Below are positions 14,311-32,443 of a DNA stretch of 62,299 nt, piece after piece (positions within the stretch are counted from its first letter, which is position 1; every line of letters begins with the position of its first letter). The stretch lies in NCBI GenBank assembly GCA_947587085.1, contig CANPXX010000001.1:1-62299 (forward strand). Reading direction: 5' to 3'. The DNA is from an uncultured Clostridia bacterium (GTDB lineage: Bacteria > Bacillota > Clostridia > Christensenellales > Borkfalkiaceae). The position numbers and the translations under genes are program-made. The notes below the pieces were generated by a model. It did not search any database. It was not told the origin of the DNA and was given only the letters and a program-made list of their open reading frames with translations.

Positions 14311-14386
14311 CGCGCGCGCAAACGCGCGCAAAACGGTTAAACAGAACGAATTATTGAAATACATACCCTCGATTTATCAAAATTGC

Positions 14387-14417
14387 TTGACGTGCAGGGG
14401 GGGGGTCATGGTACAAT
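14387..14417 (+). promoter_or_regulatory. Candidate promoter of the 17-kb operon (extended -10, G9 tract in the spacer)
   Basis: TTGACG (14387-14392), a 19-nt spacer containing G9, then TGgTACAAT (-10 at 14412-14417). Confidence 0.5.
14397..14405 (+). repeat. G9 homopolymer tract
   Basis: gcaGGGGGGGGGtcatgg read directly from the sequence. It lies between the putative -35 and -10. Confidence 0.95.
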
Positions 14418-14424
14418 GCTGTAT

Positions 14425-15688: not shown

Positions 15689-18600
15689 CGATATCATCGA
15701 AAAACTCGATTCGCTGCAAAAGGTGGCGCTCGTCGCCTCGGCGTTGGAGGACGAAGCCCTCGAACAGGCGGGGGTGCCCCCCGTCGGGCGGGCGGAGCTT
15801 GGCGCGCTCGCCGCAAAGGAGGGGTGCTCCTACCGCAGTGCGGCGTGCTCGTGGAACGCCGCGCTCATCGAGGAAATGACGCGGGAGCTTGCCGCGGAAG
15901 CGGGCGCGGACGGGGCGCGTCTCTTCGTCACGCCCGATCTGAAAGCGGCGGCGGGACCGTACGCGGAGGGGCTCACCGAGGACGCGGAGCTCAACGGCAT
16001 GTACGGCGCCGCGATGGCGCGCGGCGTGCACGCCGCGGGCGGTGCGGTGGGGCTCGGTCGCCTCTCGCTCGGCGCCGCCGAACTTGCCTGTCTCGACCGC
16101 CGCGAGGATCTCCGCGCCGTCCACGAGCTGGCGGTAAAGCCCTTCCTGCTCGCCGCAAAGGAGGGGTGCGACGCGGTGTTCCTGACGCCGAGCCGCGCGG
16201 GGGAGGGATATCCCGACACCAACCGCGCCCTCTTTTCGGACGTCTTGGCGGGGCGGTTCGGAAACGCCTTCGCCGTCGGAGAGGGGACGGCGCCCACGTC
16301 CGAGGCGGTCTTTCTGTTGCAGGGGAGGGCGACCTTGGGCGGCGCGGCGCTCCCGCTCGAGCGGGCGGCGCGGCGGTACGAACAGCTCGCCGCCTTCCGC
16401 GGGGAGGGAAGCGTCTCGGAGCGGGACGTGGAGGACGCGCTCCGCGAGGGGAGCGCGCTCTCCCGCGAACGGTTGGACGAGGCGGCGGACGAAGTCGCCG
16501 ACTTCGCCATCCGCCTGTCAGAGCTCACGTTGGAGCCGCCCGCGGGCGACGCGGCGAGGCGGGCGGTCGCGGAGGAGAGCATCGTGCTCCTCAAAAACAA
16601 CTCCGTCCTTCCCCTCGCGCAGGGGACGAAGATCGCCGTCGTGGGGGAGGCGTATCCCGACCTTTCCCCCCTTGCCTCGCGGTTCGAGGTAGCGGGGACG
16701 GCGCGCGGCTATGACCGCGCGACCGATCGGAGCGACGCCCTCATCCCCGAGGCGATGCGCGCGGCGAACGGCGCGGACGTCGTGCTCGCCTTTCTCCGTC
16801 CCGACCCGAACGGGCGCTCGCTCGCCCTTCCCGCCAACCGTCTCGCCCTGCTCGGGGCGCTCGAAAAGGCGGGGAAGAGGGTGGTGACGGTCCTTCTCGG
16901 CGACCTCGCGGCGGACATGCGCTTCGACCGCGATGCGGCGGCGTCGCTGTATGCGCCCGAGGGCGGGAAATATGCCGCCGAAGCGCTCGCGCGCGTGCTC
17001 GCGGGAGAGGTCTCCCCCTCGGGCAAGCTGGCGCGCACTCTGTACGACGGCGCGGACGAGCGGGTCCGCGCGCTGAGAGAGGAGCGCGATTCGGGGCTCA
17101 CCCGCGTGGGCGGGTTCACGGGCTATCTCCGCTACGATACGGCGGGGGAGACGGTGCGCTATCCCTTCGGGTACGGGCTCTCCTATACGAAATTCGTCTA
17201 TTCCTCCCTCTCGGTGGAGGGGGATACGGTGTCCTTTACGGTGAGAAACGCGGGCAAGCACGACGGCGCAGAGGTCGCCGAGGTGTATATCGGCGAGCCC
17301 GGCAAGTCGCACGTGGCGCCCTCCAAGCGGTTCAAAGCCGCCGCGAAGGTGTTCCTGCGCGCGGGGGAGAGCAAGAGGGTCTCCCTCACCCTCCCGCCCG
17401 AGCGGTATGCCACTTTCGACCGCCGCACCTTCGCGGAGAACGTGGAGGGGGGAACGTACCGCATCTTTGTGGGCGCCTCCTCGCAGGACATCCGTCTGCG
17501 CGGCAAGCGGACGCTCGCGGGCGTCGAACGGGAACGGGAGAAGGAGACGGCGGCGGACTACTTCCCGGGCGGAGACCGCGGCGACGTCGCCGAAGTGGGG
17601 CGGGAGAGCCGCCTTGCGAAGGAGGACGGGCGCGAACGGGTGCCGCGGCGCCTGCGCATCGCGCGGCGGACGGCGCTTTGCCTCCTCCCCGCCGTCTTGC
17701 TCCTCTTCTTTCTGATCGTCACCATGCTCATCTTTTCCTATGCGCTCGACTATGTCCTCCTCTTCACGGTGGACGAACAGGCGGCGGCGTGGGCGCTCTA
17801 TATCCTCGCGTCGGCGGTCGTCGCCTTCGTGCCGCTCTTCGGCTCGCTCAGCCGCAGGCGGATGGTGCGGATCAAAAAGGTCTGCATGACGGCGTGCCCC
17901 ATCCTCCTCCTTGCCGATCTCTTCCTCGGGCACTTCCTCGGAACGGACGGGACGGGGGCGGTCGAAGCCGTGTTTACGGCGGTCACCTGTCTCGCCGTGG
18001 GGACGGTGCTCGCCCTCCTTCTCGGCTTCGTGCTCGAACGCGAGCTCGTGCGCACGGAGAGCGGGGCGAACCGCTGGGCGCGCTTCTATTTCGAACCCGA
18101 AAAGCAGGAGACGACGACGCCCGATACGCAGTTCGAGGAGGCGTTCCGCGCGGCGGACGAGGCGCGCGCCAAAACAAAGGGCAAGCAGGAGGAGCCTCGC
18201 GCGCCCATCGCCGAGGTCCCCCAATTTTACGATCGGCATCTCACCTTCGAGGTGCTCTTCCGCGACTGCAAGCGGTTCGCGGCGGAGCGCGGCGTGCTCT
18301 TCGAGGACGGGGACCTTCGCGACCTCCTCGCCGCGTTCACGGCTTCCCGCCTCATCATCGTGCCTTCGGGCGGCGCCGTGAAGGGGTGCTCCGCCGTCGC
18401 GGAATATCTCGGCGGCAAGCCCTATGTGGACAATGCCGAACAATACATGCGGTGCGACGACCTCTTCTCGGAGTGGCGGAGCGGGGAGCGGCTCTATCTT
18501 CCCACCGCCCTGAGCGAGGCGTTCGCCGAGGCGGGGAGAAAGAGCGCCGTCCTCCATACGGCGATCATCCGCCATGCCGACGTCAACCGCCTCGCCGAGG

Positions 18601-19172
18601 TGTTCGGTCCCGTCGCGGAGGTGCTTTCCCGCAGGCGGACCGCGATTCCCTCGCAGGAGGGCGATCGGCTCCTGCCGCCCAACCTGCAATTGGTGGTGGA
18701 GCTGGACTCCGACGGGACGGACATCCCCGAGAAGATCGCGGAGGTCGCGGCGGTGCTGTCGCCGCAGTGCAAGGAGGGCGCGCCCGCGCAGAGAAAGACG
18801 GTGGTGCACGCGGTCGGCTTCGAGCGCTTCTCGGCGCTCCGCAACGCCGTGCGCGACGAATTCCCCGTCGGCGAGGCGCTGTGGAAGGACGTGGACCGTC
18901 TCGACGCGCAGTGCCGCGCGGCGCACATCGGCAACCTCGCGTGGGTGAGGCTGGAACTGCACGCCTCCGCCGTCATCGCCTGCGGCGGAAAGGAGCGGGA
19001 GGCGCTGGACGGCGCCCTCGCCGCGGAGCTCGTCCCGTGGCTGAACGCGACGTGGGACGACGAGGCGGGCGGGCTTTTTGAGACGTTGCGGGAGATCTTC
19101 GGGAGAGATTTCGCCCGCGCGGCGCAGGCGGCGAAGAGGGCGGCTACGAAAGAGAAGGGGGCGCGCGGATGA
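15675..19172 (+). CDS. Fusion protein: GH3-like domains + Fn3-like domain + four TM helices + degenerate McrB-like AAA+ domain
   Basis: GH3 hallmarks are IVLLKNNSVLPL..KIAVVGE, SPSGKLARTLY and RYPFGYGLSYTKF. There is no N-terminal signal peptide. Four hydrophobic helices fall at roughly aa 660-790. The C-terminal 330 aa are collinear with the two downstream GTPases but lack the Walker motifs. Confidence 0.8.
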   Translation: MLKHSDIIEKLDSLQKVALVASALEDEALEQAGVPPVGRAELGALAAKEGCSYRSAACSWNAALIEEMTRELAAEAGADGARLFVTPDLKAAAGPYAEGLTEDAELNGMYGAAMARGVHAAGGAVGLGRLSLGAAELACLDRREDLRAVHELAVKPFLLAAKEGCDAVFLTPSRAGEGYPDTNRALFSDVLAGRFGNAFAVGEGTAPTSEAVFLLQGRATLGGAALPLERAARRYEQLAAFRGEGSVSERDVEDALREGSALSRERLDEAADEVADFAIRLSELTLEPPAGDAARRAVAEESIVLLKNNSVLPLAQGTKIAVVGEAYPDLSPLASRFEVAGTARGYDRATDRSDALIPEAMRAANGADVVLAFLRPDPNGRSLALPANRLALLGALEKAGKRVVTVLLGDLAADMRFDRDAAASLYAPEGGKYAAEALARVLAGEVSPSGKLARTLYDGADERVRALREERDSGLTRVGGFTGYLRYDTAGETVRYPFGYGLSYTKFVYSSLSVEGDTVSFTVRNAGKHDGAEVAEVYIGEPGKSHVAPSKRFKAAAKVFLRAGESKRVSLTLPPERYATFDRRTFAENVEGGTYRIFVGASSQDIRLRGKRTLAGVEREREKETAADYFPGGDRGDVAEVGRESRLAKEDGRERVPRRLRIARRTALCLLPAVLLLFFLIVTMLIFSYALDYVLLFTVDEQAAAWALYILASAVVAFVPLFGSLSRRRMVRIKKVCMTACPILLLADLFLGHFLGTDGTGAVEAVFTAVTCLAVGTVLALLLGFVLERELVRTESGANRWARFYFEPEKQETTTPDTQFEEAFRAADEARAKTKGKQEEPRAPIAEVPQFYDRHLTFEVLFRDCKRFAAERGVLFEDGDLRDLLAAFTASRLIIVPSGGAVKGCSAVAEYLGGKPYVDNAEQYMRCDDLFSEWRSGERLYLPTALSEAFAEAGRKSAVLHTAIIRHADVNRLAEVFGPVAEVLSRRRTAIPSQEGDRLLPPNLQLVVELDSDGTDIPEKIAEVAAVLSPQCKEGAPAQRKTVVHAVGFERFSALRNAVRDEFPVGEALWKDVDRLDAQCRAAHIGNLAWVRLELHASAVIACGGKEREALDGALAAELVPWLNATWDDEAGGLFETLREIFGRDFARAAQAAKRAATKEKGARG

Positions 19173-20443
19173 ATCTTCTCATCGATATGCAGACCATCTG
19201 GGATACGCTCACCTCTCCCGTCTTTGTCATCGTCTACATCGTGGCGGTGGCGCTCCTCATGCTCGCCATCGTCATCTCGGTCATGGTCAACGAGCACCGC
19301 TTCACCGCCTTCGGCGACCGCCTCGGCAAGAGCGCGGAGATGGCGGAGCGCGGGGAGGAGCGCAGCGGTTCGCGCTTCGATATGCTGAAAAAATTGGACG
19401 GGGAGAAGAAAACGCGGCAGGAGACCGCGTTCGAGGACATCTCCTTGAAGGAGCTGTGCGAGAGCTTCCGCAGCTTTTCGGCGGGGAAGCTCGGGCTGTA
19501 CTATTCCATCGACGTCATCCGCGAGTTCATCGCGGGGCTCGCCGTTTCGCACATCATCATCCTGCAGGGCATGTCGGGCACGGGCAAGACGTCGCTCGCC
19601 TACGCCTTCGGGGAATTCCTCGGCAATCCCTCCACCGTCATTCCCGTCCAGCCCATGTGGAAGGAGCGGAGCGACCTCCTCGGCTATTACAACGAATTCA
19701 CCAAGCGGTTCAACGAGACCCTTCTTCTGCAAAAGATCTACGAGGCGAACGGGCGCGGGGACATCTTCATCACCATCCTCGACGAGATGAATATCGCCCG
19801 CGTGGAGTACTACTTCGCGGAGTTTTTGTCCCTGCTCGAAATTCCAAACCCCGAGGCGCGCTACCTCGAAGTGGTGTCCGACCGATGGGCGGACGACCCC
19901 GAGGAGCTCAAAAACGGGCGGGTGAAACTGCCCGAGAACATGTGGTTCTTGGGGACGGCGAACAACGACGACAGCACCTTCGCCATCTCGGACAAGGTGT
20001 ACGACCGCGCCATGATTCTGAACATGGACCAGCGGTGCGAGCCCTTCGAGGCGAAGGCGTACCGCTCCGTGCCCGTCGCCGCCGCCCGCTTCGAGCGCCT
20101 TGCGGCGGAGGCGGTCAAAGAGATCGGGGTGTCCTTGGAGACGCTTGACAAGCTCAAAAAGGTGGACGCCTATCTCGCGGAGACCTATCAGATCTCCTTC
20201 GGGAACCGCATCCTGCGGCAGATCGTCACCTATCTGCCCGTCTACGTCGCCTGCGGCGGGGATGAGATCGACGCTCTCGACGACATCCTCGCGAAGAAGG
20301 TGCTCAGAAAACTCGAAACGCAGAACATGACCTACCGTGCCTCCGACATGGAGGCGCTGTGCGAGGTCCTCAACGAACTGTTCGGCGCGGAGCGCATGGC
20401 GCGCTGTCTCAAAACGGTGCGGCGCATCGCGCGGAACGGATAG
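19169..20443 (+). CDS. Membrane-anchored McrB-family AAA+ GTPase (paralogue 1)
   Basis: N-terminal TM VFVIVYIVAVALLMLAIVISVMV, Walker A GMSGTGKTS, Walker B ILDEMNIARVEYYFAEFLSLLE, and McrB-type LGTANNDDSTFAISDKVYDRA (NxxD). The ATG overlaps the upstream stop (ATGA). Confidence 0.8.
   Translation: MNLLIDMQTIWDTLTSPVFVIVYIVAVALLMLAIVISVMVNEHRFTAFGDRLGKSAEMAERGEERSGSRFDMLKKLDGEKKTRQETAFEDISLKELCESFRSFSAGKLGLYYSIDVIREFIAGLAVSHIIILQGMSGTGKTSLAYAFGEFLGNPSTVIPVQPMWKERSDLLGYYNEFTKRFNETLLLQKIYEANGRGDIFITILDEMNIARVEYYFAEFLSLLEIPNPEARYLEVVSDRWADDPEELKNGRVKLPENMWFLGTANNDDSTFAISDKVYDRAMILNMDQRCEPFEAKAYRSVPVAAARFERLAAEAVKEIGVSLETLDKLKKVDAYLAETYQISFGNRILRQIVTYLPVYVACGGDEIDALDDILAKKVLRKLETQNMTYRASDMEALCEVLNELFGAERMARCLKTVRRIARNG
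19550..20016 (+). repeat. About 467-bp near-identical tract shared with 22823-23289
   Basis: By eye, roughly nine-tenths nucleotide identity across the AAA+ core of the two GTPase genes. The flanking gene parts are much more diverged. Confidence 0.8.
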
Positions 20444-20454
20444 GGGAAGGGCGC

Positions 20455-22287
20455 ATGAATCAGACCGATCACATCTATCGCGCCTTCACGGAGCTCAAAA
20501 GGGCGCTGGAAGAGAACCGCTCCGTCCTCTCCTTCTCCCGCGCGCTCGCAGAGGCGGCGGAGCAGGACCGCATCACCGTCACGCACAACCTCTGCTATGT
20601 CGAGGAGGATTGGGTGGCGGCGATCGAGCGCGGACTGCCCTTCATCGCCAAGGCGATCGAGGAGGACAGACAGTTCATCCGTTCGGACGGCGAGGTACAG
20701 CCCATCGAGAAGGTGCGGCACATCTCGCGGGAGTCCGTCCAGCACCTCTCCCGCCACAGCGACTACATCACGCGGGAGCCAAAGGAGGACGACATCATCC
20801 CCGACAAGCTCTACACGGTGGAGCGTCTCAACGACTATGCCGTGTACGAGAACCGCTTCCTCTATCTTCTGCTTTGCAAGATCCGCGACTTCGTCTCCCT
20901 GCGCTACGACGCCATCCTCCGCGCCTTCAAGCTGTACCGCGGCGAGCTCTCCGTCCGCAAGAAGGTCGCCCTGCCGACGCGGCGCATGGAGCTCTCGGTG
21001 TCCATGACGGACGAGCAGGACGACGCGCTCGCCGCCTCCGCCGACCCCGTCTGCCTCAGCTATCTCGGGCGCATGGAGAAGATCCAGAGCAGCGTCGCCT
21101 TCTTCCTGCGCACCCCGCTCATGGTGGAGGTGTCCCGCGTAGACAAGATCAAGTCCAAGATCACCAAGACCAACGTCCTGCGCATGGACAAAAATTTCAA
21201 GGAGGCGGTCTCGCTGTACGAGTTCCTCCTCGCCTATGAGGGGGACGGCTACACGGTGGAGCGGAACGTCACCGCGCTCGATCCCGTCTCGGCGGAGATC
21301 GCGTCGGAGCTGGCGGCTCCCTCCGTTCTCTTGTCCTTCCTCGTGTACGAGCACGGGCTGGGGATGGAGGAGCTTCTCCGCGAGGCGTACGAGCGGGAGG
21401 AGGCGCTTCGCGCCGAGCGCGCCCAAAGCGCCCTCGTGGAGGCGATCAAGGAGCTCAAAAAGCGCGTTGCAGAGACGGGGGAGGACATGGAGCGCTATAT
21501 GCTCCTCCTCGAAGAGCGCAACGCGTGGCTCGAAAAGGAACACCTCCTCTACCTCGAAGCGCAGAAGAAGATCGAAGCGCTCGAGGGCACGGTCGGGGAA
21601 TTGCGCGCCGAGAGAGAACGCCTCATGGGGGAGATCGGCGAGCTCACTGCCGAGAACGAGGCGCTCGGGGCGAAGATAGAGGAAATGGCGGAGACGCACA
21701 GACAGCAGCTCGCGGCGCTCAAAGAGGAGCACGCGCGGGAGACGGCGGCGCTCAAAGAGGAGCAGGAAAAGGAGTTGGAGCGCGCCGAACGCAAGCACCG
21801 CGAGGAGATTGCACGCGTCCGCGCGGAGGGCGAGAAGAAGTTGAAGGAGGAGCGGGAGCGCACCGCCGAGCGGATGCGCGAGACGGAGGAGGCGCGCCGC
21901 GAGACGGACGCCGTGCAAAAGGTGCTCGAAAGCGCCGAGGAGGAGTGCGCCATGCTCCGCGCGCGGTACACGGCGCTTCGGAGCGAACACGGGCTCCGCG
22001 GCGACGCGGATTTCACCACCGAGGAGGGATTCAACGAGCTCGAACGCGAGTTCGAGGCGCTCGGCAGATTGGTCCGCAGGGAATGGACGGACGTCAAGCG
22101 CATGTTGCGCAAGGAATTTTACGGGTCGCTCCGCACCGTCATGCGCGGGAAGAAGGGAGAGAAGAGCGCGGCGTACGAGGCGCTCGTTTCCTCCGCGCAG
22201 GCGCGCCGCGCGCAGGGCGAAGAGCCGCCCATAGGGGAAGGCACAAAGGACAGCGAAGAGGCGTCGGATGAAGACGGAAGAGCATAA
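20455..22287 (+). CDS. McrC/DUF2357-like N-terminal domain fused to a long coiled coil (no nuclease motif seen)
   Basis: The N-terminal part (IRSDGEVQPIEKVRHISRESVQHLSRHSDYI ... YAVYENRFLYLLLCKIRDF ... TNVLRMDKNFKEAVSLYEFLL) resembles the McrB-binding part of McrC/DUF2357. From about aa 300 it is E/K/R/A/L-rich heptad-like sequence for about 270 aa. Confidence 0.6.
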   Translation: MNQTDHIYRAFTELKRALEENRSVLSFSRALAEAAEQDRITVTHNLCYVEEDWVAAIERGLPFIAKAIEEDRQFIRSDGEVQPIEKVRHISRESVQHLSRHSDYITREPKEDDIIPDKLYTVERLNDYAVYENRFLYLLLCKIRDFVSLRYDAILRAFKLYRGELSVRKKVALPTRRMELSVSMTDEQDDALAASADPVCLSYLGRMEKIQSSVAFFLRTPLMVEVSRVDKIKSKITKTNVLRMDKNFKEAVSLYEFLLAYEGDGYTVERNVTALDPVSAEIASELAAPSVLLSFLVYEHGLGMEELLREAYEREEALRAERAQSALVEAIKELKKRVAETGEDMERYMLLLEERNAWLEKEHLLYLEAQKKIEALEGTVGELRAERERLMGEIGELTAENEALGAKIEEMAETHRQQLAALKEEHARETAALKEEQEKELERAERKHREEIARVRAEGEKKLKEERERTAERMRETEEARRETDAVQKVLESAEEECAMLRARYTALRSEHGLRGDADFTTEEGFNELEREFEALGRLVRREWTDVKRMLRKEFYGSLRTVMRGKKGEKSAAYEALVSSAQARRAQGEEPPIGEGTKDSEEASDEDGRA

Positions 22288-23716
22288 ACGGAAAAAGATC
22301 AGGCGGAGGGGGAGACGGCGTTTCGTCCTCTCCGTCATGCTGCTCACCGCGGTCGCGCTCGTCGCGGGGTCCTTGGTCGCGGTCCTTTTCTATCTCATGT
22401 CCAACGGCACGTTGGAGACCATGCTCGCCCTCCTTCGCGACGTGTTCCTCGCGCAGGAGATCAACAGCGCGCTCATCATCTTCTGGGCGCTCGTCATCCC
22501 GTTTCTTCTCGCCGCCCTTCTCATCCTCAACACCGTGCGGCGGCGCAAGTTCAAGTACTACCGCCGTACGTGGGAGGACACCGTCCAGCTCGCGGTGGAG
22601 GCGGAACAGCGCGCGAGCGAGAAGGAGCGCGAAAAGGCGGGGCGCGGGCATCGGTTCAGCGCGCTCTACGATATCCCCGTCCGCACGCCGCCCGAGAGGG
22701 AGAGCGGGATCTCCTCGCTCGCCGAGCTTTGCAGGCGCTTCCGCCTGTACGCCGCCGCCGAACTTCATCTCTACTATACCGAAGCGCAGGTGCGGGAATT
22801 CGTGGCGAGCCTCGCCGTCTCGCGCATCATCATCTTGCAGGGCATGTCGGGCACGGGCAAGACGTCGCTCGCCTATGCCTTCGGGGAATTCCTCGGCAAT
22901 CCCTCCACCATCATCCCCGTCCAGCCCATGTGGAAGGAGCGGAGCGATCTTCTCGGCTACTACAACGAGTTCACCAAGAAGTACAACGAGACGGCGCTCC
23001 TGCGCAAGATGTACGAGGCGAACGGGCAGGACAAGATCTATCTCGCCGTCCTCGACGAGATGAACATCGCCCGCGTGGAGTACTACTTCGCGGAGTTTTT
23101 GTCCCTGCTCGAAATACCCGATCCCGAGCTCCGTTACCTCGAAGTGGTTTCGGATTCGTGGGAGGAGGACCCCGACGGGCTCAAAGACGGGCGCATCAAA
23201 TTGCCCGAAAACATGTGGTTCTTGGGGACGGCGAACAACGACGACAGCACCTTCGCCATCTCGGACAAGGTATACGACCGCGCCATGATCGTCGATCTCG
23301 ACAGCCGCGCCGCGCCCTTCGGAGGGGAGGGGGAACAACAGAAGGTGCCCGTCACCTTCCCCGAGTTCACCCGCCTTGCGGAGAGCGCCCGCCGCGGCTA
23401 CGAGCTCACGCGGCGCAACGAGCGTCGGCTCAAAGCGCTCGACGACTACCTCATCGAAACCTTTCAGATAACCTTCGGAAACCGCATCCTGCGGCAGATC
23501 CGCGCGTATATTTCGGTGTATGTGAGCTGCGGGGGCGAGGAGCTCGAAGCGCTCGACGACATCCTCGCGAAAAAGGTGCTCCGAAAGCTCGCCAATAAAG
23601 ATCTGTCTCTTCTTCGCGGCGAGCTCGAAGAGGCGTCCAAATTTTTCGAAACTCTGTTCGGCGACGGCAAGATGCCGCGGTGCCGCGAAACGCTCCTGCG
23701 CGCGGCGAAGCTCTGA
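22268..23716 (+). CDS. Membrane-anchored McrB-family AAA+ GTPase (paralogue 2)
   Basis: Basic N-terminus (KRKKIRRRGRRR) plus two TM helices, then the same GMSGTGKTS, LDEMNIARVEYYFAEFLSLLE and LGTANNDDSTFAISDKVYDRA motifs. It overlaps the upstream gene by 20 nt. Confidence 0.8.
   Translation: MKTEEHKRKKIRRRGRRRFVLSVMLLTAVALVAGSLVAVLFYLMSNGTLETMLALLRDVFLAQEINSALIIFWALVIPFLLAALLILNTVRRRKFKYYRRTWEDTVQLAVEAEQRASEKEREKAGRGHRFSALYDIPVRTPPERESGISSLAELCRRFRLYAAAELHLYYTEAQVREFVASLAVSRIIILQGMSGTGKTSLAYAFGEFLGNPSTIIPVQPMWKERSDLLGYYNEFTKKYNETALLRKMYEANGQDKIYLAVLDEMNIARVEYYFAEFLSLLEIPDPELRYLEVVSDSWEEDPDGLKDGRIKLPENMWFLGTANNDDSTFAISDKVYDRAMIVDLDSRAAPFGGEGEQQKVPVTFPEFTRLAESARRGYELTRRNERRLKALDDYLIETFQITFGNRILRQIRAYISVYVSCGGEELEALDDILAKKVLRKLANKDLSLLRGELEEASKFFETLFGDGKMPRCRETLLRAAKL
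22823..23289 (+). repeat. Partner copy of the 19550-20016 tract
   Basis: See 19550-20016. Confidence 0.8.
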
Positions 23717-23725
23717 GGAGGGACT

Positions 23726-26125
23726 ATGAGACGTTCGAAACCGCTCTATCTCTTCGGAATGATCATCGTGATGAGCCTCATCTTTCTCGGTGGGGTCTGT
23801 TTTGCCGCGGGCTACGGGAGATTCGGGCTCTTGCGGGGGGAGGAAGTCGAGGATCCCAACACGCTGTGGGAGGACATCGTCGAGAACTTCGATTGGAACG
23901 ACTTCCCGTGGGACGACTTCCCCTTCGAGGAGTACGACGACTTCCCTTGGAGCGAGCTCCCTTGGGACGACATGCCCGCCGACTTCGATTGGAACAAGCT
24001 CCCGTGGGAGACGTTGCCCGACGACTTCCCTTGGGACAATCTTCCCTTCGACGATCCGCCCGCTGACTTCCCGTGGGACGATCTCCCGTGGGATTCCCTC
24101 CCCGAGGACTTCCCCATCGACGACGTGCCGTGGGGCGACATCCCCATCGAGGATATGCCTTGGGAGAACCTGCCCGAAGATTTCCCGTGGGGGGATATTC
24201 CCCTCGGCGACGCGGAGGAGTTCCCGTGGGAGAACATTCCGTGGACCGACCTTCCCGAGGACTTCCCGTGGGAGGACGTCCCTTGGGAGAGCGCACCCGA
24301 CGATTTCCCTTGGAACGACGTGCCTTGGGAGGATGTCCCGATGGAGACGCTTCCCGAGGACTTCCCGTGGGAAAATCTTCCTTGGAATGACTTGCCCGAC
24401 GACTTCCCTTGGAACGATGTGCCGTGGGAGGACGTCCCTATGGAGACGTTGCCCGAGGACTTCCCTTGGGAAAACCTGCCGTGGAACGACTTACCAGAAG
24501 AATTCCCTTGGGAAGATGTCCCGTGGGAGGATGTCCCGATGGAGACGCTCCCCGAGGATTTCCCTTGGGAAAATCTTCCTTGGAACGATTTACCCGACGA
24601 TTTCCCTTGGAACGACGTCCCTTGGGAGGACGTGCCGATGGACACCCTCCCCGAGGACTTCCCTTGGGAAAACCTGCCTTGGAACGATTTACCCGAAGAA
24701 TTCCCGTGGGAAGATGTCCCTTGGGAGGACGTCCCGCTCGATACGCTTCCCGAGGACTTCCCGTGGGAGAATCTTCCTTGGAACGACTTGCCCGAAGAAT
24801 TCCCGTGGGAAGATGTCCCTTGGGAGGACGTCCCGCTCGACACCCTCCCCGAGGATTTCCCGTGGGAAAACCTGCCGTGGAATGACTTGCCCGAAGAATT
24901 CCCTTGGAACGACGTGCCTTGGTCGGATGTCCCGATGGAGACGCTCCCCGAGGATTTCCCGTGGGAGAATCTTCCTTGGAATGAGCTTCCCGACGACTTC
25001 CCTTGGAACGATGTGCCTTGGTCGGACGTCCCGCTCGACACCCTCCCCGAGGATTTCCCGTGGGAAAACCTGCCTTGGAACGATTTACCCGACGACTTCC
25101 CTTGGAACGATGTGCCTTGGTCGGATGTTCCGCTCGATACGCTGCCCGAGGACTTCCCTTGGGAAAAGTTGCCGTGGAACGATCTCCCCGAGGACTTCCC
25201 GTGGGATCAGGTCCCGTGGGCAGACCTGCCGTGGGAGGAGATGCCGCTCGACTTCCCGTGGGATAAAGTTCCTTGGAACGACCTCCCCGACGACTTCCCT
25301 TGGCAGAAACTGCCGTGGCCGCTCTTGGCGGCGGGCGGCTTGTTGCTCGGGCTGGGGCTGCCGTGGGATAAGATCCCGCAGGACGCCATCCCCGAAGGCA
25401 TATTCCCCGAGGGCTTCTCGCCGTGGTGCCAACATGTCTTTACCGAATGGCGGGAGGAGCCCCCGCCCACCTGCGGCGCACCGGGCGTCAGACAAGAGCA
25501 CTGCGTGCTCTGCGGCGAGGTGGTCGGAAGGGAGGACATCCCCGCGACGGGCGCGCACGTCTATGGAGAGGACGGCGTCTGCACGGGGTGCGGACGGAGG
25601 AAGGTGTGCTTTGTGAGCGCCTCCAAAGAGACGGAATACGGCGGCGCGCTTCGGTGCGAAAACGAGGACATCTCGCTCGTGCGGGAGACGGGCTTCGCCG
25701 CGCTCGCGGAGGGGCACTCCTTCGAGGGGATAGATTTTGCCTCGCACAACACCATCGGCGAATGCCCCAACGTCTTTCACGTCCGCATCAAAGACGCGGC
25801 GGGGAACGACGTGACGGATACATACGAAGTGGAGTACCGCTACGGGACTCTCACGCTCACCGCGCGGAGGCTCGTCCTCGTCACGGAGAGCCATGCGTTC
25901 TCCCTCTCCGAATTCACGGGCGAGCCCCTCAAATGGGAGAAGTATTCTTTCGGAGACGGCACGTCGCTCGCCGAGGGCGACCGCATCGTGCTCACCTTCG
26001 AGAGCATCTCGCGCCCGGGCAGAAAGGAAAACATAGCTACTTACCGCATCGAGAATGCGGACGGGGAGGACGTGACGGGGAATTATGCCGTGACCTCCCA
26101 ATGGGGAGAGCTGACGCTCAAATAG
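23726..26125 (+). CDS. DFPW acidic Trp/Pro repeat protein with N-terminal TM anchor, Cys-rich segment and MBG-like C-terminal domains
   Basis: 799 aa with strong RBS GAGGAGGG. The TM is LYLFGMIIVMSLIFLGGVCFAAG. About 480 aa of (F/L/V)PW(E/N/D)D-type units follow. Then comes CGAPGVRQEHCVLCG...CTGCG, and it ends with ...VTGNYAVTSQWGELTLK. Confidence 0.85.
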   Translation: MRRSKPLYLFGMIIVMSLIFLGGVCFAAGYGRFGLLRGEEVEDPNTLWEDIVENFDWNDFPWDDFPFEEYDDFPWSELPWDDMPADFDWNKLPWETLPDDFPWDNLPFDDPPADFPWDDLPWDSLPEDFPIDDVPWGDIPIEDMPWENLPEDFPWGDIPLGDAEEFPWENIPWTDLPEDFPWEDVPWESAPDDFPWNDVPWEDVPMETLPEDFPWENLPWNDLPDDFPWNDVPWEDVPMETLPEDFPWENLPWNDLPEEFPWEDVPWEDVPMETLPEDFPWENLPWNDLPDDFPWNDVPWEDVPMDTLPEDFPWENLPWNDLPEEFPWEDVPWEDVPLDTLPEDFPWENLPWNDLPEEFPWEDVPWEDVPLDTLPEDFPWENLPWNDLPEEFPWNDVPWSDVPMETLPEDFPWENLPWNELPDDFPWNDVPWSDVPLDTLPEDFPWENLPWNDLPDDFPWNDVPWSDVPLDTLPEDFPWEKLPWNDLPEDFPWDQVPWADLPWEEMPLDFPWDKVPWNDLPDDFPWQKLPWPLLAAGGLLLGLGLPWDKIPQDAIPEGIFPEGFSPWCQHVFTEWREEPPPTCGAPGVRQEHCVLCGEVVGREDIPATGAHVYGEDGVCTGCGRRKVCFVSASKETEYGGALRCENEDISLVRETGFAALAEGHSFEGIDFASHNTIGECPNVFHVRIKDAAGNDVTDTYEVEYRYGTLTLTARRLVLVTESHAFSLSEFTGEPLKWEKYSFGDGTSLAEGDRIVLTFESISRPGRKENIATYRIENADGEDVTGNYAVTSQWGELTLK
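24341..25231 (+). repeat. In-frame 99-bp (33-aa) tandem repeat, about 9 units
   Basis: The unit is (M/L)(E/D)TLPEDFPWENLPWNDLP(D/E)(D/E)FPW(N/E)DVPW(E/S)DVP. Consecutive units are highly similar at the DNA level. Confidence 0.9.
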
Positions 26126-26137
26126 GACGGAGGGAAC

Positions 26138-29100
26138 ATGCTCTATCGGTCGTACCAAGAGAGGCTTGCAAAGCTGGCGCGCGCGTTCGAGCGCGTCTGG
26201 CGGTTCCGTCTGCTCTTTTTGGCGGGCTTTGCGCTTCTGCTTGCGGCGGCGGCGACCCTTCTCGGCGTCACGGGGACGGTGTACGGCGAAGAGTTCGCCT
26301 CGGAGGTGGTGTACGGGCAGTCCCTCTCCCCCTCGGCATCGGCGCTCTTTCGCACGGCGTCCTTCGAATACCGTGCGGCGGGCGGCGAATGGACGGAGGA
26401 GGAGCCCCGTCTCGTGGGCGAATACGAGGTCCGCGCCGTCGGAAAGTCGGTGGCGGGCACGCGGTACGCGGGGGAGGCGCATTCCTATCGGATCGTGCCC
26501 CGCGAAACGGAGGTGCGCGCCGCGGCGAGCTCGCTCGTCTATGGGGATGAGCTCGCCTTCTCTGCCTCTCTGTGCTATGGCGATACCCTCACCGTCTCCT
26601 CCTATTCCGCCCGTCCGCTCGGCGGGCGGCTCTTCGTCACGCCCGACGGGGAGAGCATCTCCGCAAGGAGCGAGAGCGGGGAGGACGTCTCTTCCTGCTA
26701 TCTGTTCGTGCCCGTGGAGCGCACGATCGAGGATGTCCCCCGCCCCGTCGTCTTTGAGACGCCCACCCTCACCTTCGGGTACGACGGCAACGTCCACACG
26801 GGCGGCACGGTGGAGGTAGCGGAGGGGAACCTCCTTTCGGGGCACACCGTCGAGGCGGTCATGCCCTCCCTCACTTCGGTAGGGTCTGTCCCCAACAGCG
26901 TGCGCGAACTGCACATCTATGACGAGGCGGGCGAGGAGGTCACCGAGCACTATTCGATCGCCTTTCGGGCGGTGGGAACGCTCACGGTGACGCCGCGCGC
27001 CCTCTCGGTCACGACGCGCTCGGACTCCTTCGTCTATGACGGGACGGCGCATCGGTACGAGGACTTTTCCGTCGCGGAGGGGTCGCTTGCGGAGGGCGAA
27101 ACGCTTCGCCGCCTCTCGGCAGTCTCCCCGACGGAGGCGGGCGAATATCCGAACTACTCCTCCTTCGCCGTCTATGCGGACGGGGAGGACGTCACATCCA
27201 ACTATGCGCTCACCGCCTCGTTCGGGACGGTGACGGTGGAAAAGCGCATCCTTTCGGTCACAACGCGCTCGGACTCCTTCGTCTATGACGGAACGGCGCA
27301 TCGGTATGAGGACGGCGCCGTCTCGGATGGGTCCCTCGCGGAGGGGCAGGAGCTTCGTCGCCTCTCGGCGATCTTCCCGACGGAGGCGGGCGAGTATCGG
27401 AACTATTCCTCCTTCGCCGTCTATGCGGACGGGAAGGAGGTCACATCCAACTATGTCCTCTCCCTCTTCTTCGGGACGGTCACGGTGGAGAGGATACGGC
27501 TTACGGTGGAAGCCATGTCCGACTCCTTCTTATACGACGGGGCATACCATGTCTATGATACGCCATCGAGCGTGACGCGGCATGAAAAGGACGGGACGTA
27601 CCATGTCTACCGTTCGTTTGAGGACGCCGAGGGCATGCTCGCCCGCGGGCAGACGCTCGTCCTCTCGGCGGTCCGCGTCAGGGACAGGGGCGTCCATCCC
27701 AATGCGCCCTCCGCCGCCGTTTATGCGGGGGAGACGGACGTGTCGGCGAACTATGAAATAGAGCTGCGGGCGGGGGAGCTTACGGTCACGCCCCGCCCCG
27801 TCTCCCTCCTCAGCGCTTCGCTAAAAGGCATCGTCTATGACGGCGCGCCGCACGCCGCCGAGGGATACGAGGAGGAAAACCTCGTCGCGGGGCACCGCGT
27901 GGAGGCGACCTACCGTACGTTCACGGAGGCGGGCACGCACACAAATGATTTCGAGAAAGACCCCGTCATCTTGGACGGGGCGGGGAACGACGTCACTTCC
28001 AATTATGAAATTGATTGGAAGTTCGGCACGGTGACGATCGATCGGCGCCCCGTTACGCTCGTCTCGGACAGCGAGCGGTTCGTCTATGACGGTATACCTC
28101 ACGCCGTCAGAAATTATTCTCATATGGGCGAATACGACCTCGTCAAAGGGCATTTCGTCTCTCCCGAATATCCGAGCTATACGGAGGCGGGGGAGCATCC
28201 GAACGAGTTCTCCACGCCGCTCGACGTGTACGACGGCGAGCGCAACGTCTCTTCCGATTATGAAATACAATGGCAGTTCGGCACGGTGACGATCGACCCT
28301 CGCCCCATCGCCTTTGTCACGGGCACGAAGGAGGACTTCGTCTACAACGGGGCGGCGAACGTTTGGCATACGGTCGGGCTCGCCGCGGGCTACACGCTCG
28401 CCGCGGGGGAGAGCTTCGCGGTGACGGTGACGAAGGACGTCTCGGTCACAGGCGTGTGCAAAGGGGTGAGGAACGAGCTCGAATTCGAGTGGAGGGTGTA
28501 CCGCGACGGACGGGAGACCACCTCCAATTACGCGCAGGACGAAACGGAGTACGGCACGCTCGGCGTCCTGCCCCGCCCCGTCGTCCTCACTTCCTCCTCC
28601 GTTACCGTCGTCTATGACGCCGCTGCGCACGCCGCCGCAGGATACGAGGAGGACAACCTCGTCGCGGGGCACCGCGTGGAGGCGGACTATCGTACGTTCA
28701 CGGAGGCGGGCACGCACACCAACGACTTTGAAAAGGAGCCCTCCATCTTGGACGGGGGCGGGAACGACGTCACCGCGAATTATGATATCACATGGGAATA
28801 CGGTAAAGTGGTCATCCAACGGAGGAAGGCGACCGTCGAGACGGGCTCGGGGAATACGATGTACGACGGAACGTCGCACACCTTCGGGGAATTTTCCGTC
28901 TCCGTCGAGGGCGGCGCGCTCGAGGGGCACACCTTCGAGCCCGTCTTTCACGTTTTCAAGGATGTCTGCGAGCAGCCGAATAAGCCCGACGCCATCACTG
29001 TGCGAGGCGGAGAAGCCGACGTCACCGCGAATTACGATATAACTTGGCAATGCGGTACGGTGACGATCGCGCCCCGTCCCGTCACGGTGACCGCGCCGAG

Positions 29101-31468
29101 CGAGACGCGGATGTACGACGGAAAGGCGTACCCCGCGGGGGGAGAGTCCACGGTCTCCTATCCCGAGGGCGGGCTCGGGCACGACGTCTCTCCCGAGTAT
29201 CGCGTGACGCCTGAGATGGCGAACGTGGGGGAGCACGAGAACGAAATCCAAAGCGTCCGCATTACGGCGGAGGGTGAGGACGTCACGGGCAACTATCAAA
29301 TTACGACCGTCTCTGGGACGCTCACCGTTACCGCCCGCCCCGTCTCCCTCCTCAGCGCTTCGCTAAAAGGCATCATCTATGACGGCGAACCGCACGCCGC
29401 CGAGGGATATACGGATACGGGAATGGACCCCGTCACGGGGGAAACCGTGCAAAAGCTCGTCGAGGGGCACCGCGTGGAGGCGACCTACCGTACGTTCACC
29501 GAGGCGGGCACGCACACAAATGATTTCGAAAGAGACCCCGTCATCTTGGACGGGACGGGGAACGACGTCACTTCCAATTATGAAATCGATTGGAAGTTCG
29601 GCACGGTGTCGATCGATCGGCGCCCCGTTACGCTCGTCTCGGACAGCGAGCGGTTCGTCTATGACGGCGCGCCGCACGATGTCCGCAGGTATTTCCATAC
29701 GGGCGAATACGACCTCGTCGAAGGGCATTTCGTCTCTCCCGAATATCCGAGCTTCACGGAGGCGGGGGAGCATCCGAACGAGTTCCCCACGCCGCTCGAC
29801 GTGTATGACGGCGAGCGAAACGTCTCTTCCAATTATGAAATACAATGGCAGTTCGGCACGGTGACGATCGACCCTCGCCCCGTCGTCCTCCTCAGCGATT
29901 CGCTGGAAGGCATCGTCTATGACGGCATTGCGCACGCCGCCGCGGGGTATGAAGATACGGGAATGGACCCCGTCACGGGGGAAGCCGTGCAAAAGCTCGT
30001 CGATGGGCACTATGTGGAGGCGACCTATCCCTCCTTCACCGACGTGAAAGAGGGGTACGACAAGGTGGACAAGGCGACGCAGGCGTACGAGAATGTCCCG
30101 ACGAATGTCGTCGTGCGCGACAAGGAGGGGAACGACGTCACAAGGAACTATCAGGTCGAATGGCAATACGGCACGGTGACGATCGACCCCCGTCCCCTCC
30201 ATGTCGAAACCCTTTCGGGCGAGTGGGTCTACGACGGAAAGCCGCATACGATGCCGGAATACGTCGTAACGGAAGAGGACCTCGTCGCGGGGCAGACCTT
30301 TCACAAAGGGGAGGTCACAGACGCTCCGTCGATCGCCTTTTTCACGCAAAGCGGTAAGGAGAACAAATTTGGGATCGAGTTCCGCATTCGGAACGAGCGG
30401 GACGCGGAGATTCCCGCACGGAACTATGAACTCATCTGGACGTACGGCACGCTCACCATAGAACAGCGCCCCATTAAAGTTACCTCGCAATCGTACACAT
30501 GGGTGTATGACGGAACAGCCCACAGACCGGCGACGGAGGGAGAATGGACGTTGGAGATGGCTTCGGAGACGACGGCTGACCGAGGGTTCTTGGGCAAAAA
30601 GGAGCGTGCTCGCCTGTCCTATCAATCTTTCACCGATATCACCGACATTTGGAACGCGGCGAAACGCGAATACGAAGTGGGGACCGTCGAAAACGAATTG
30701 ACTGTACTTCTCTATGATGACGACTATGGTGGCTCGCTCACCGGTCCTAAGGATACAGCCTCAAACTATCTCTTTGAATGCGAATGGGGAAAGATCCGCA
30801 TCAAATCGCCCATCGTCGTGGACCTCTTCGCCATCGAAGCGGAGTACGACGGCAAGGAGCACGCCCTCCGCGCGGACGACTACTTCATCGCGCGCAAGCC
30901 GCCCGAGGTGAAGAGCGAGTGGATCCGCGTCGAACTCAACGTTGAACACAACGAGAAGCTCATTTCGGTGGGCGGGCTCACCGCGACGGAAGTGTCGGGC
31001 GCGTCCGTCTGTTCGGTATGGGACGGGGAGAACGACCTCACGGGCGAAAACCGCTTCGTATTCGTCTGCTCGGGCGGGCTGGGCTGCGCGGGCGGCGAAG
31101 GGTGCAATGGAGCGCACTGCAAGGGATGCGAGGAGAAGTGCGTCTCCCTCGGGGGCTGGGAGGGCTGTCCCAATTGCTACGCGCTCAAAATCAGTCCGCG
31201 CCGCATCACCCTCCGTACGGCTTCCATCAAGCGCGTCAAGGGGAGCGAACCGCTCCTCGGGTCAGATCCTGCGAATCGGTGGTGGATCTCGTACGGCAAT
31301 CTGGTCGAGGGACACGAGATCCGTTGCACGTTCACGGGAAGATTGGAGCTCGACGAAGAGAGAGCTTTGAACACGGCGGAGTTCTCCGTCTGGAACGGCG
31401 AGGAGGACGTCACGGCTTGTTATGAGGTGACGACGATTTTGGGCGAGCTCGCATGGTACGGAGGATAG
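26138..31468 (+). CDS. Giant membrane-anchored MBG-domain repeat protein
   Basis: 1776 aa with N-terminal TM FRLLFLAGFALLLAAAATLLGV. More than 15 units match the MBG pattern (...LTVTPRP(V/L)...FVYDG.AH......G..L..GH........EAG.H.N........G.DVT.NY.I....GT(V/L)TI). There is a Cys-rich segment near the C-terminus (CSGGLGCAGGEGCNGAHCKGCEEKC...CPNC). Confidence 0.85.
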   Translation: MLYRSYQERLAKLARAFERVWRFRLLFLAGFALLLAAAATLLGVTGTVYGEEFASEVVYGQSLSPSASALFRTASFEYRAAGGEWTEEEPRLVGEYEVRAVGKSVAGTRYAGEAHSYRIVPRETEVRAAASSLVYGDELAFSASLCYGDTLTVSSYSARPLGGRLFVTPDGESISARSESGEDVSSCYLFVPVERTIEDVPRPVVFETPTLTFGYDGNVHTGGTVEVAEGNLLSGHTVEAVMPSLTSVGSVPNSVRELHIYDEAGEEVTEHYSIAFRAVGTLTVTPRALSVTTRSDSFVYDGTAHRYEDFSVAEGSLAEGETLRRLSAVSPTEAGEYPNYSSFAVYADGEDVTSNYALTASFGTVTVEKRILSVTTRSDSFVYDGTAHRYEDGAVSDGSLAEGQELRRLSAIFPTEAGEYRNYSSFAVYADGKEVTSNYVLSLFFGTVTVERIRLTVEAMSDSFLYDGAYHVYDTPSSVTRHEKDGTYHVYRSFEDAEGMLARGQTLVLSAVRVRDRGVHPNAPSAAVYAGETDVSANYEIELRAGELTVTPRPVSLLSASLKGIVYDGAPHAAEGYEEENLVAGHRVEATYRTFTEAGTHTNDFEKDPVILDGAGNDVTSNYEIDWKFGTVTIDRRPVTLVSDSERFVYDGIPHAVRNYSHMGEYDLVKGHFVSPEYPSYTEAGEHPNEFSTPLDVYDGERNVSSDYEIQWQFGTVTIDPRPIAFVTGTKEDFVYNGAANVWHTVGLAAGYTLAAGESFAVTVTKDVSVTGVCKGVRNELEFEWRVYRDGRETTSNYAQDETEYGTLGVLPRPVVLTSSSVTVVYDAAAHAAAGYEEDNLVAGHRVEADYRTFTEAGTHTNDFEKEPSILDGGGNDVTANYDITWEYGKVVIQRRKATVETGSGNTMYDGTSHTFGEFSVSVEGGALEGHTFEPVFHVFKDVCEQPNKPDAITVRGGEADVTANYDITWQCGTVTIAPRPVTVTAPSETRMYDGKAYPAGGESTVSYPEGGLGHDVSPEYRVTPEMANVGEHENEIQSVRITAEGEDVTGNYQITTVSGTLTVTARPVSLLSASLKGIIYDGEPHAAEGYTDTGMDPVTGETVQKLVEGHRVEATYRTFTEAGTHTNDFERDPVILDGTGNDVTSNYEIDWKFGTVSIDRRPVTLVSDSERFVYDGAPHDVRRYFHTGEYDLVEGHFVSPEYPSFTEAGEHPNEFPTPLDVYDGERNVSSNYEIQWQFGTVTIDPRPVVLLSDSLEGIVYDGIAHAAAGYEDTGMDPVTGEAVQKLVDGHYVEATYPSFTDVKEGYDKVDKATQAYENVPTNVVVRDKEGNDVTRNYQVEWQYGTVTIDPRPLHVETLSGEWVYDGKPHTMPEYVVTEEDLVAGQTFHKGEVTDAPSIAFFTQSGKENKFGIEFRIRNERDAEIPARNYELIWTYGTLTIEQRPIKVTSQSYTWVYDGTAHRPATEGEWTLEMASETTADRGFLGKKERARLSYQSFTDITDIWNAAKREYEVGTVENELTVLLYDDDYGGSLTGPKDTASNYLFECEWGKIRIKSPIVVDLFAIEAEYDGKEHALRADDYFIARKPPEVKSEWIRVELNVEHNEKLISVGGLTATEVSGASVCSVWDGENDLTGENRFVFVCSGGLGCAGGEGCNGAHCKGCEEKCVSLGGWEGCPNCYALKISPRRITLRTASIKRVKGSEPLLGSDPANRWWISYGNLVEGHEIRCTFTGRLELDEERALNTAEFSVWNGEEDVTACYEVTTILGELAWYGG
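27001..27498 (+). repeat. Tandem 249-bp (83-aa) duplication inside the giant gene
   Basis: LSVTTRSDSFVYDGTAHRYED...FGTVTVE(K/R)RI occurs twice in tandem with high DNA identity. Confidence 0.85.
27788..28306 (+). repeat. About 520-bp dispersed direct repeat, copy 1 (partner 29333-29881)
   Basis: Near-identical DNA encoding PRPVSLLSASLKGI(V/I)YDG...QWQFGTVTIDPRP. The copies differ by one roughly 30-nt indel. Confidence 0.85.
29333..29881 (+). repeat. About 550-bp dispersed direct repeat, copy 2
   Basis: See 27788-28306. A shorter related segment lies at about 28560-28800. Confidence 0.85.
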
Positions 31469-31490
31469 AGGGAATTTTGAAAGTTACCAT

Positions 31491-31519
31491 GCGGCGGGCG
31501 AATTGGTCTCGCCCGCCGC
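31491..31519. terminator. Hairpin between convergent genes (probable operon terminator)
   Basis: Perfect 11-bp GC stem gcggcgggcga/tcgcccgccgc with a 7-nt loop. The U-tract is weak on both strands. Confidence 0.5.
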
Positions 31520-31530
31520 TTATCGGTCGG

Positions 31531-32292: not shown

Positions 32293-32391
32293 GTCGATTA
32301 CCTCTCTTTGCCCTATCGTACGCCCGTGTGCTACAAAGGATTCGGGCACACTTTGAAAGTTCGGTACGATTTTTGTCGAGCGCCGTCCCGC

Positions 32392-32420
32392 TTGACAAAT
32401 GCGGACGGGAATGGTATCAT
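32392..32420 (+). promoter_or_regulatory. SigmaA-type promoter for comEC-holA
   Basis: TTGACA, a 17-nt spacer, then TATCAT. This places the first usable start at ATG 32444, preceded by GGAGA. Confidence 0.65.
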
Positions 32421-32443
32421 TTTCCAAAGCATGGAGAAATGAG

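Follow-up and report, generated by a model that had tools for sequence, protein, structure and literature searches.

What does a long, strictly periodic array of acidic tryptophan- and proline-containing peptides do in a membrane-anchored bacterial protein? The question is raised by a gene in a 62,299-nucleotide stretch of DNA (the window) from an uncultured Clostridia bacterium of the Borkfalkiaceae (assembly GCA_947587085.1, contig CANPXX010000001.1), in which a first-pass annotation, made by reading the sequence, had noted a repeat that it could not place in any known family. The encoded protein consists of an N-terminal transmembrane (TM) helix, the repeat array, a Cys/His module and two immunoglobulin (Ig)-like modules. 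We propose, with moderate confidence, that the protein is anchored at the cell surface in type-II orientation (N-in, C-out), with the array as an ordered, polyanionic stalk of variable length outside the cell. The repeat family itself is real, previously undescribed and of narrow taxonomic range.

The composition of the array is extreme and its spacing highly regular. Residues 55-535 (481 residues) comprise 100 Pro, 88 Asp, 59 Trp and 57 Glu, corresponding to 21% Pro and 12% Trp, and carry a net charge of -141. The Pro-Trp dipeptide (PW) occurs 57 times, compared with 12 times expected by shuffling (maximum 23 in 2000 shuffles), and 55 of the 58 gaps between successive Trp residues measure 5, 9 or 14 residues, compared with 8 expected. 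Tandem Repeats Finder detected a 99-nucleotide period at 24254-25303, with 10.6 copies, 83% matches and a score of 1137. These statistics therefore establish that the repeat is real and far beyond chance. Ten in-register 33-residue units start at residues 176, 209 and so on to 473, eight of which are canonical. The first-pass annotation had described a Trp/Pro/acidic repeat, a 33-residue tandem super-repeat and a TM anchor ahead of the repeats, all of which our data bear out, the first also through its parsing into pentapeptides and the last through a hydropathy scan. The interval that it gave for the repeat, 23888-25328, locates the core correctly and falls slightly short of the full Trp-rich array (Table 1).

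The array is built hierarchically, with units of 5 or 4 residues combining into 14 and these into 33 residues. Across 265 units from 34 family proteins, the 14-residue base unit has the consensus [LM]-P-[ED]-[DN]-F-[PD]-W-x-x-[VIL]-P-[WF]-[DE]-[DEN], in which P2, W7 and P11 are 100% conserved and F5 is 92% conserved, whereas position 6 is either Pro (53%) or Asp (43%). The higher-order periods of 19, 33 and 38 residues result from the addition of 5-residue units, and the Trp autocorrelation in the window protein peaks at 33, 14, 19 and 5 residues, with no peak at 11.

The units are far less alike in DNA than in protein. Nucleotide identity among the eight core super-units ranges from 74 to 91%, averaging 85%, and no direct repeat within the array stays exact over more than 51 nucleotides, at odds with the very high DNA identity claimed by the first-pass annotation. 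Its suggestion of a recent expansion fails as well: Nei-Gojobori counts over the eight canonical units show that about half of the synonymous sites differ (proportion of differing sites pS 0.53, dS ~1.05), compared with 7% of the non-synonymous sites (pN 0.068), yielding a dN/dS ratio of ~0.07. The units starting at residues 308 and 341 have the same protein sequence, yet 9% of their nucleotides differ. With synonymous differences this numerous, the amplification must be old, and the dN/dS ratio points to strong purifying selection on the peptide sequence and confirms the reading frame. Long open reading frames (ORFs) in another frame or on the other strand (23790-25616 + and 23812-25041 -) were rejected as by-products of the repeat. 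The array offers a cautionary example, as high protein identity between units coexists here with near-saturated synonymous divergence, so that the regularity of a repeat does not imply its recent expansion.

Parts of the array can be recovered from other data. Logan contigs from independent rabbit-gut sequencing runs match positions 24220-24694, 24305-24476 and 25088-25245 with zero mismatches; these contigs, assembled with k=31, are broken inside the array, and the total copy number is thus that of the assembly. Since every unit is distinguishable in DNA and pieces of the array recur exactly in independent runs, a collapsed or expanded repeat produced by the assembly, a possibility entertained by the first-pass annotation, is unlikely.

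To place the repeat, we searched for both homologues and family models. A word-indexed search returned 22 homologues at 28-44% identity, none with a named product and all sharing the architecture of the window protein. A phmmer search of the array against 1.84 billion representatives gave 192 matches at E <= 1e-3. Among these, about 26 clusters (50% identity) are true relatives, defined by the presence of a TM anchor, a PW array, the Cys module and the two modules that follow; they are unnamed, and their stated sources are Clostridia metagenome-assembled genomes (MAGs) from rabbit gut. The public runs holding the window sequence are likewise rabbit-gut metagenomes. The remaining phmmer matches are Trp-less Pro/acidic pentapeptide repeats (IPYHT, IPLQD, VPxED) that have only periodicity and composition in common with the array. 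Short hPW[DE]x runs (h, hydrophobic) also occur in three other proteins: P0113 (1514 residues) has 17 consecutive FPWDx pentapeptides near its C-terminus, P0150 (246 residues) has IPWE/LNW repeats and P0074 has short hPW[DE]x-like stretches. Reading of its sequence, with no domain search, suggests that P0113 is phage tape-measure-like, and we regard the three cases as convergent and apparently independent inventions.

No described family accounts for the repeat, in line with what the first-pass annotation had reported. Scans of the whole protein and of a 99-residue repeat piece against Pfam, NCBIfam and PADLOC did not identify the repeat, the only PDB sequence returned by phmmer was a chance match (E 0.12) and a set of 50,697 phage records contained nothing similar to the array by tblastn. 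The five-super-unit structural model described below found nothing in the PDB with Foldseek at E <= 10 and nothing significant in BFVD. Nor did the last 246 residues of the protein, used as a query for homologues, return anything at E <= 1e-5. A related-locus search with the protein itself found patterns with zero tblastn confirmation, the family alignment offered no sufficiently conserved stretch for such a search and an exact 35-mer scan of metagenome contigs had zero matches. Literature searches on the repeat motifs (DFPW, FPWED and similar) returned unrelated acronyms only, and those on PDC-M26, the MBG domain and related taxa returned nothing relevant.

The position of the array within the family argues for a stalk, with the TM anchor on one side and the globular modules on the other in each of the ~26 clusters. 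A five-residue basic tail, MRRSK, precedes the TM helix and an acidic stretch follows it, and the motif M[KR]R.K..Y..G with its hydrophobic stretch is kept in all homologues. According to the positive-inside rule, and given the Ig-like modules, the array and the domains beyond it would be extracellular. The TM helix is the only one in the protein, which ends in ...WGELTLK with neither an LPXTG motif nor a C-terminal TM helix. A short hydrophobic patch, PLLAAGGLLLGLGL, closes the array and was rejected as a second TM helix, being only ~13 residues long, under the hydropathy threshold and missing from several homologues (it is found in P0001, P0003, L008 and L012 and missing from P0007, P0017, L017 and L069). 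A lipoprotein signal was likewise rejected on a reading of the sequences, with no dedicated tool, as the Cys of GGVCFAAG has no lipobox context and is not conserved.

Comparison of the proteins encoded at the same position in related loci indicates how the array varies. Downstream of the gene for the membrane-bound AAA_5 ATPase (TM-AAA_5), PW or DW repeats are confined to the closest relatives, most of them rabbit 'Lapin' MAGs, and among relatives the array ranges from ~80 residues (L069, P0018) to ~900 residues (L066). In Anaerocaecibacter muris (locus L033), a more distant relative, and most others, the anchor leads straight into Ig-like modules with no array. The array is thus a lineage-specific, exchangeable and length-variable insert between the anchor and the ectodomains. 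Copy number was also compared within ten 90%-identity clusters of relatives. Eight clusters have one full length only, one of these also listing two 147-residue fragments that come from short contigs. A single clean in-register gap is all that separates P0007 from P0175 (76 residues, 2x38) and P0011 from P0183 (28 residues, 2x14), and these gaps are either real alleles or short-read collapses. In the tenth cluster, P0017 (465 residues) and P0177 (457 residues) were compared by length only and differ by 8 residues.

Individual positional orthologues illustrate the diversity of these inserts. Locus L008, among the closest relatives by AAA_5 identity (70%), encodes at 11425-13497 a 13-residue variant, LPEDFDWGxFLxN (DFDW), with 4 PW compared with 32 D/E-W dipeptides; the unit type thus changes quickly between species though it is strictly kept within one array. 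Locus L021 (10464-15794, MAG CANQRP010000026.1) encodes a 1776-residue orthologue in which a Gly-rich linker is followed by at least 20 tandem modules of ~46 residues. Their pattern, H.FGEW.V...PTCG..G.....C..CG......I..T..H, is that of the Cys/His module present once in the window protein, and it has no Pfam match. In the cultured A. muris, the Ig-like modules of the protein at L033:11414-14677 are accompanied by a transglutaminase-like core domain (PF01841, E 2.8e-23).

We used AlphaFold2 to model the protein. The full-length model, computed from a 23-sequence alignment, has a mean predicted local distance difference test score (pLDDT) of 77 and a predicted template modelling score (pTM) of 0.33, with values of ~90 in the Ig-like modules and 60-88 in the array. 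Five super-units modelled in isolation (residues 209-373) reach a pLDDT of 91.3 and a pTM of 0.80, all five models scoring at least 89. Both models place a three-residue helical turn at every Wxx and neither has any beta-strand in the array, which points to an ordered turn-repeat structure. The first-pass annotation had imagined a solenoid or a polyproline-like rod: an ordered, solenoid-like rod agrees with the prediction, whereas helical turns are predicted in place of a polyproline II helix. Pro and Asp are both favoured at helix N-termini, and the alternation of these two residues at position 6, just before each predicted turn, would fit such a position.

The same models inform the domains beyond the array. 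The Cys/His module may form a zinc-ribbon-like pair of beta-hairpins, with predicted strands at residues 587-593 and 599-605. The Ig-like modules resemble MBG_2 (PF18676) at 14.3 bits (E 0.062), below the gathering score of 25 bits, and AgI_II_C2 at E 0.0014, under the cut-off; the homologue P0017 carries a precomputed PF18657 match. Foldseek with the full model retrieved only weak tandem Ig-like matches from the PDB, all with E > 0.008.

From these data, we infer that the array serves as a spacer. Proline would start the short helical or 3-10-like turn of each hPWxx pentapeptide, Trp and Phe would form a regular aromatic/proline core along the chain and the ~145 Asp/Glu side chains would make its outside strongly negative. 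Electrostatic repulsion, possibly together with bound divalent cations, could keep the chain stiff. The number of units would then determine how far from the membrane the Cys/His module and the pair of Ig-like modules are placed, across the cell wall or past it. The distal modules may act together with the giant protein encoded by the adjacent gene, which contains many modules of the same type (BLASTP E 7e-19, 37% identity to the C-terminal modules of the repeat protein). The stalk reading is supported by (i) the placement of the array between anchor and globular modules, (ii) modular swapping and the 80-900-residue length range at the orthologous position, (iii) purifying selection on the units and the strict conservation of P2, W7, P11 and F5, (iv) the ordered turns predicted by AlphaFold2, with Pro or Asp at the capping position ahead of them, and (v) the topology, along with a conserved operon of membrane ATPases and the giant Ig-module protein.

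Several points weigh against a stalk. The picture is drawn from sequence comparison and AlphaFold2 prediction, the alignments behind the models are shallow (23-26 sequences) and the array residues score lower in the full-length model. AlphaFold2 can be over-confident on idealised repeats, and the ordered fold therefore stays a prediction. A pure spacer would have no obvious need for strict Trp and Phe conservation, which hints at an additional binding role, and the 11-fold range in array length is hard to square with a fixed distance such as the thickness of the wall.

The conservation of the aromatic residues favours a different, doubtful reading, in which the array is a multivalent binding platform for a repeated ligand, for example cell-wall or secondary wall polymers, glycans of the host or its diet, or cationic groups (choline, polyamines, metal ions) contacted through cation-pi interactions and carboxylates, and in which attachment takes precedence over spacing. 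Conservation of W7, P2, P11 and F5 over 265 units, together with the low dN/dS ratio, exceeds what a plain linker needs; contacts with sugars or choline are typically made by Trp in carbohydrate-binding modules and in repeats that bind the cell wall, a charge of -141 would hold cations strongly and short hPW[DE]x runs have arisen independently in the unrelated P0113, P0150 and P0074. However, the array resembles none of the CW_binding, GW, SLH, LysM, carbohydrate-binding or other families in Pfam and NCBIfam, and reading its sequence reveals neither a DxDxDG nor an RTX GGxGxD calcium-binding pattern. The protein already has a membrane anchor, and most positional orthologues dispense with the array.

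It is unlikely that the array is instead an intrinsically disordered polyanionic 'entropic brush', which would act by charge and excluded volume, for example in cell separation or in shielding the cell from phages or host factors. The low-complexity composition, the large variation in length between species, the in-register indels that separate otherwise identical proteins, the whole-protein pTM of just 0.33 and the company of typical disordered Pro/acidic pentapeptide repeats among the other phmmer matches would all suit a brush. Disordered linkers normally tolerate substitutions, whereas the Pro, Trp and Phe register is invariant and dN/dS is ~0.07; a Trp content of 12% is very unusual in disordered regions, and the isolated array is predicted at a pLDDT of 91 and a pTM of 0.80 with identical local geometry in each unit.

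That the array is non-biological, either an assembly artefact or a non-coding repeat whose frame is open by chance, is highly improbable: although an exact look-up of the window protein found no other record and the public contigs leave the total copy number without an independent check, this explanation is opposed by at least 22 homologues with the same architecture and operon position, by the Shine-Dalgarno sequence and start codon close behind the upstream stop, by a codon-position pattern of differences and a dN/dS ratio that fit translated sequence and by the distinguishable units and their mismatch-free counterparts in rabbit-gut contigs.

As a stalk, the array would be a previously undescribed repeat type within a known functional class, that of surface-protein stalk repeats. 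In its presumed function, the array resembles the Pro-rich wall-spanning or stalk regions of Gram-positive surface proteins, such as the Xr octapeptides of protein A, PspA/PspC and the P region of antigen I/II. Both consist of tandem, short, charged and Pro-containing repeats of variable copy number between an anchor and functional domains, both may space these domains from the wall and the downstream modules here are weakly AgI_II_C2-like and MBG-like. As in the LPXTG wall-spanning class, a Pro-rich repeat separates anchor and domains, but the LPXTG signal and hydrophobic tail are absent and the anchor is an N-terminal TM helix rather than a C-terminal LPXTG. There is no sequence homology, and the array, with 12% Trp and a charge of -141, is a predicted string of helical turns as opposed to a polyproline II helix.

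Other short-unit repeats share single traits with the array. Pentapeptide-repeat proteins (PF00805, A[DN]LXX), which fold as a right-handed quadrilateral beta-helix, have the same five-residue periodicity with a fixed hydrophobic residue and a nearby Asp/Asn. PF00805 gave no match at E up to 0.1 with the whole protein or up to 10 with the 99-residue repeat piece; in contrast to this family, the array has 27 tetrapeptides that break the five-residue register and Pro-Trp as central residues, its AlphaFold2 models have helical turns and no strands and Foldseek finds no beta-helix match. The NANP/NPNA repeats of the Plasmodium circumsporozoite protein and the VPGVG repeats of elastin also consist of Pro-containing units of 4-5 residues, and might be compared with the array in having one predicted turn per unit and an elongated surface stalk. 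They are unrelated in chemistry, taxon and sequence, and the array differs in its hierarchical build and its richness in Trp and acidic residues.

Two kinds of repeat with conserved aromatic residues merit comparison. The choline-binding CW_binding_1 and the GW modules likewise occur in tandem, with a conserved Trp, in bacterial proteins outside the cytoplasm, but their units of ~20 or ~80 residues form beta-hairpins or SH3-like domains and are neutral or basic, whereas the array is strongly acidic; none of the CW_binding_1, GW, SLH or LysM models matched in the Pfam and NCBIfam scans. Phage tape-measure proteins are helical, length-determining proteins whose repeats have conserved Trp/Phe and a period of 11 (or 11-11-18) residues (PMC3271669). 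Trp/Phe residues at fixed spacing are common to both, and the putatively tape-measure-like P0113 carries its 17 FPWDx units, but the array has no period of 11, no tblastn match among phages and a place in a chromosomal surface-protein operon.

We see a moderate chance that the array represents a new fold. A bolder proposal, tentative at best, is that the array is a rigid, polyanionic turn-solenoid, built around Trp and Pro and unlike anything in the PDB, and that its number of units serves as a molecular ruler. The ruler would measure distance for an undescribed surface machine that is widely conserved in Clostridia and comprises a GH3-like membrane protein, a coiled-coil protein, giant Ig-module proteins and the two AAA_5 ATPases. 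If the AlphaFold2 prediction holds, the array would define a new class of short-unit repeat, ordered, acidic on its surface and with a core of aromatic residues and proline, of interest for the classification of protein repeats and for the design of rigid charged nanorods. The array marks a lineage-specific innovation in a conserved, uncharacterised surface-protein operon shared by hundreds of Clostridia species of the gut and by some MAGs that bear the labels Anaeroplasma, Anaeroplasmataceae or Bacilli, and the operon offers a handle on how uncultured herbivore-gut bacteria build their surface.

The window is chromosomal Clostridia DNA of ~63% GC, with mreB, comEC, holA and a DAC-domain (CdaA-like) gene nearby. 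The repeat gene occupies the fifth place in a tightly packed block of six genes (Table 1), which is preceded by two genes for small membrane proteins. The gap of only 9 nucleotides that separates it from the preceding gene suggests translational coupling within the operon. The gene order of the window is found around the homologues P0002, P0022 and P0013, and homologous loci also encode the downstream partner, of 2297 and 2587 residues, next to the repeat gene. The whole set of eight co-oriented genes (14383-31468, +) recurs in all three homologous neighbourhoods examined, with the same order in loci L001-L007.

Table 1. Features of the repeat gene and its operon. Positions refer to the window; aa, amino acid residues.
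Feature	Position	Strand	Remarks
GH3_C + Fn3-like protein	15675-19172	+	four or five TM helices, long C-terminal region
First AAA_5 ATPase	19169-20443	+	
Coiled-coil protein	20359-22287	+	642 aa; weak DUF2357 match in one homologue
Second AAA_5/McrB-like ATPase	22268-23716	+	membrane-bound, 2 TM; Pfam AAA_5 E 3.3e-6; adjacency kept in L001-L007
Stop codon TGA of the upstream AAA_5 gene	23714-23716	+	9-nucleotide gap to the ATG at 23726
Shine-Dalgarno-like GGAGGG	23717-23722	+	just 5' of the ATG at 23726, directly after the upstream TGA; read from sequence
Repeat-protein gene	23726-26125	+	799 aa, complete with stop codon; ORF, homologues with matching architecture, dN/dS between units
N-terminal signal-anchor TM helix	23744-23812 (aa ~7-29)	+	hydropathy scan; AlphaFold2 helix at aa 5-36
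W/P/D/E repeat array	23858-25318 (aa 45-531)	+	68 pentapeptides hPWxx and 27 LPED-like tetrapeptides
33-aa (99-nucleotide) super-unit LPED-FPWEN-LPWND-LPDD-FPWND-VPWED-VPMET	24251-25240	+	ten in-register copies; Tandem Repeats Finder, unit table
Eight canonical super-units	24350-25141	+	subset of the ten in-register copies
Short hydrophobic patch PLLAAGGLLLGLGL	25319-25360 (aa 532-545)	+	closes the array; AlphaFold2 predicts a short helix at aa 531-541
Cys/His module	25427-25597 (aa 568-624)	+	C568, H570, C583, C593xxC596, H611, C619xxC622; conserved C/H columns
Two Ig-like, MBG(YGX)-like modules	25598-26122	+	ends YGTLTL and WGELTLK; AlphaFold2 all-beta, pLDDT ~90
N-terminally anchored protein with many modules of the same Ig-like type	26138-31468	+	1776 aa; downstream operon partner

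The TM-AAA_5 gene has a much wider distribution than the array, with more than 563 related loci in species-representative genomes, mostly Clostridia and some labelled Anaeroplasma/Bacilli. The record titles of these relatives include Candidatus Borkfalkiaceae, Christensenella, Candidatus Gallimonas, Pumilibacteraceae, Oscillospiraceae, Anaeroplasma and Anaerocaecibacter muris. By exact look-up, the TM-AAA_5 protein of the window is not on record, and the first AAA_5 protein is present only on a 2.5-kb contig that ends before the repeat gene. The two AAA_5 proteins (19169-20443 and 22268-23716) match the PADLOC candidate-defence model PDC-M26A at E 2e-48 and 3e-51, respectively, the best match being confined to the ATPase core (profile positions 312-430 of 724); these matches are the only ground for considering a defence role for the operon. 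Of the two, only the protein encoded at 22268-23716 shows weak similarity to NCBIfam McrB. In rabbit-gut runs, Logan depth over the AAA_5 core (23000-23350) is 10-30x that elsewhere in the stretch, and variant contigs are numerous there; related AAA_5 genes, abundant in co-resident species, probably cause the excess by cross-mapping.

Two ORFs lie at the downstream end of the operon. The first, of 329 residues (31453-32442, +), follows the giant gene and is probably spurious, because its Gly/Arg/His-rich composition is not protein-like and it has no family match. On the opposite strand, the overlapping ORF at 31531-32826 seems to encode a genuine small protein in its C-terminal half, possibly PRC-barrel-like, which would run convergently to the operon and mark the operon end.

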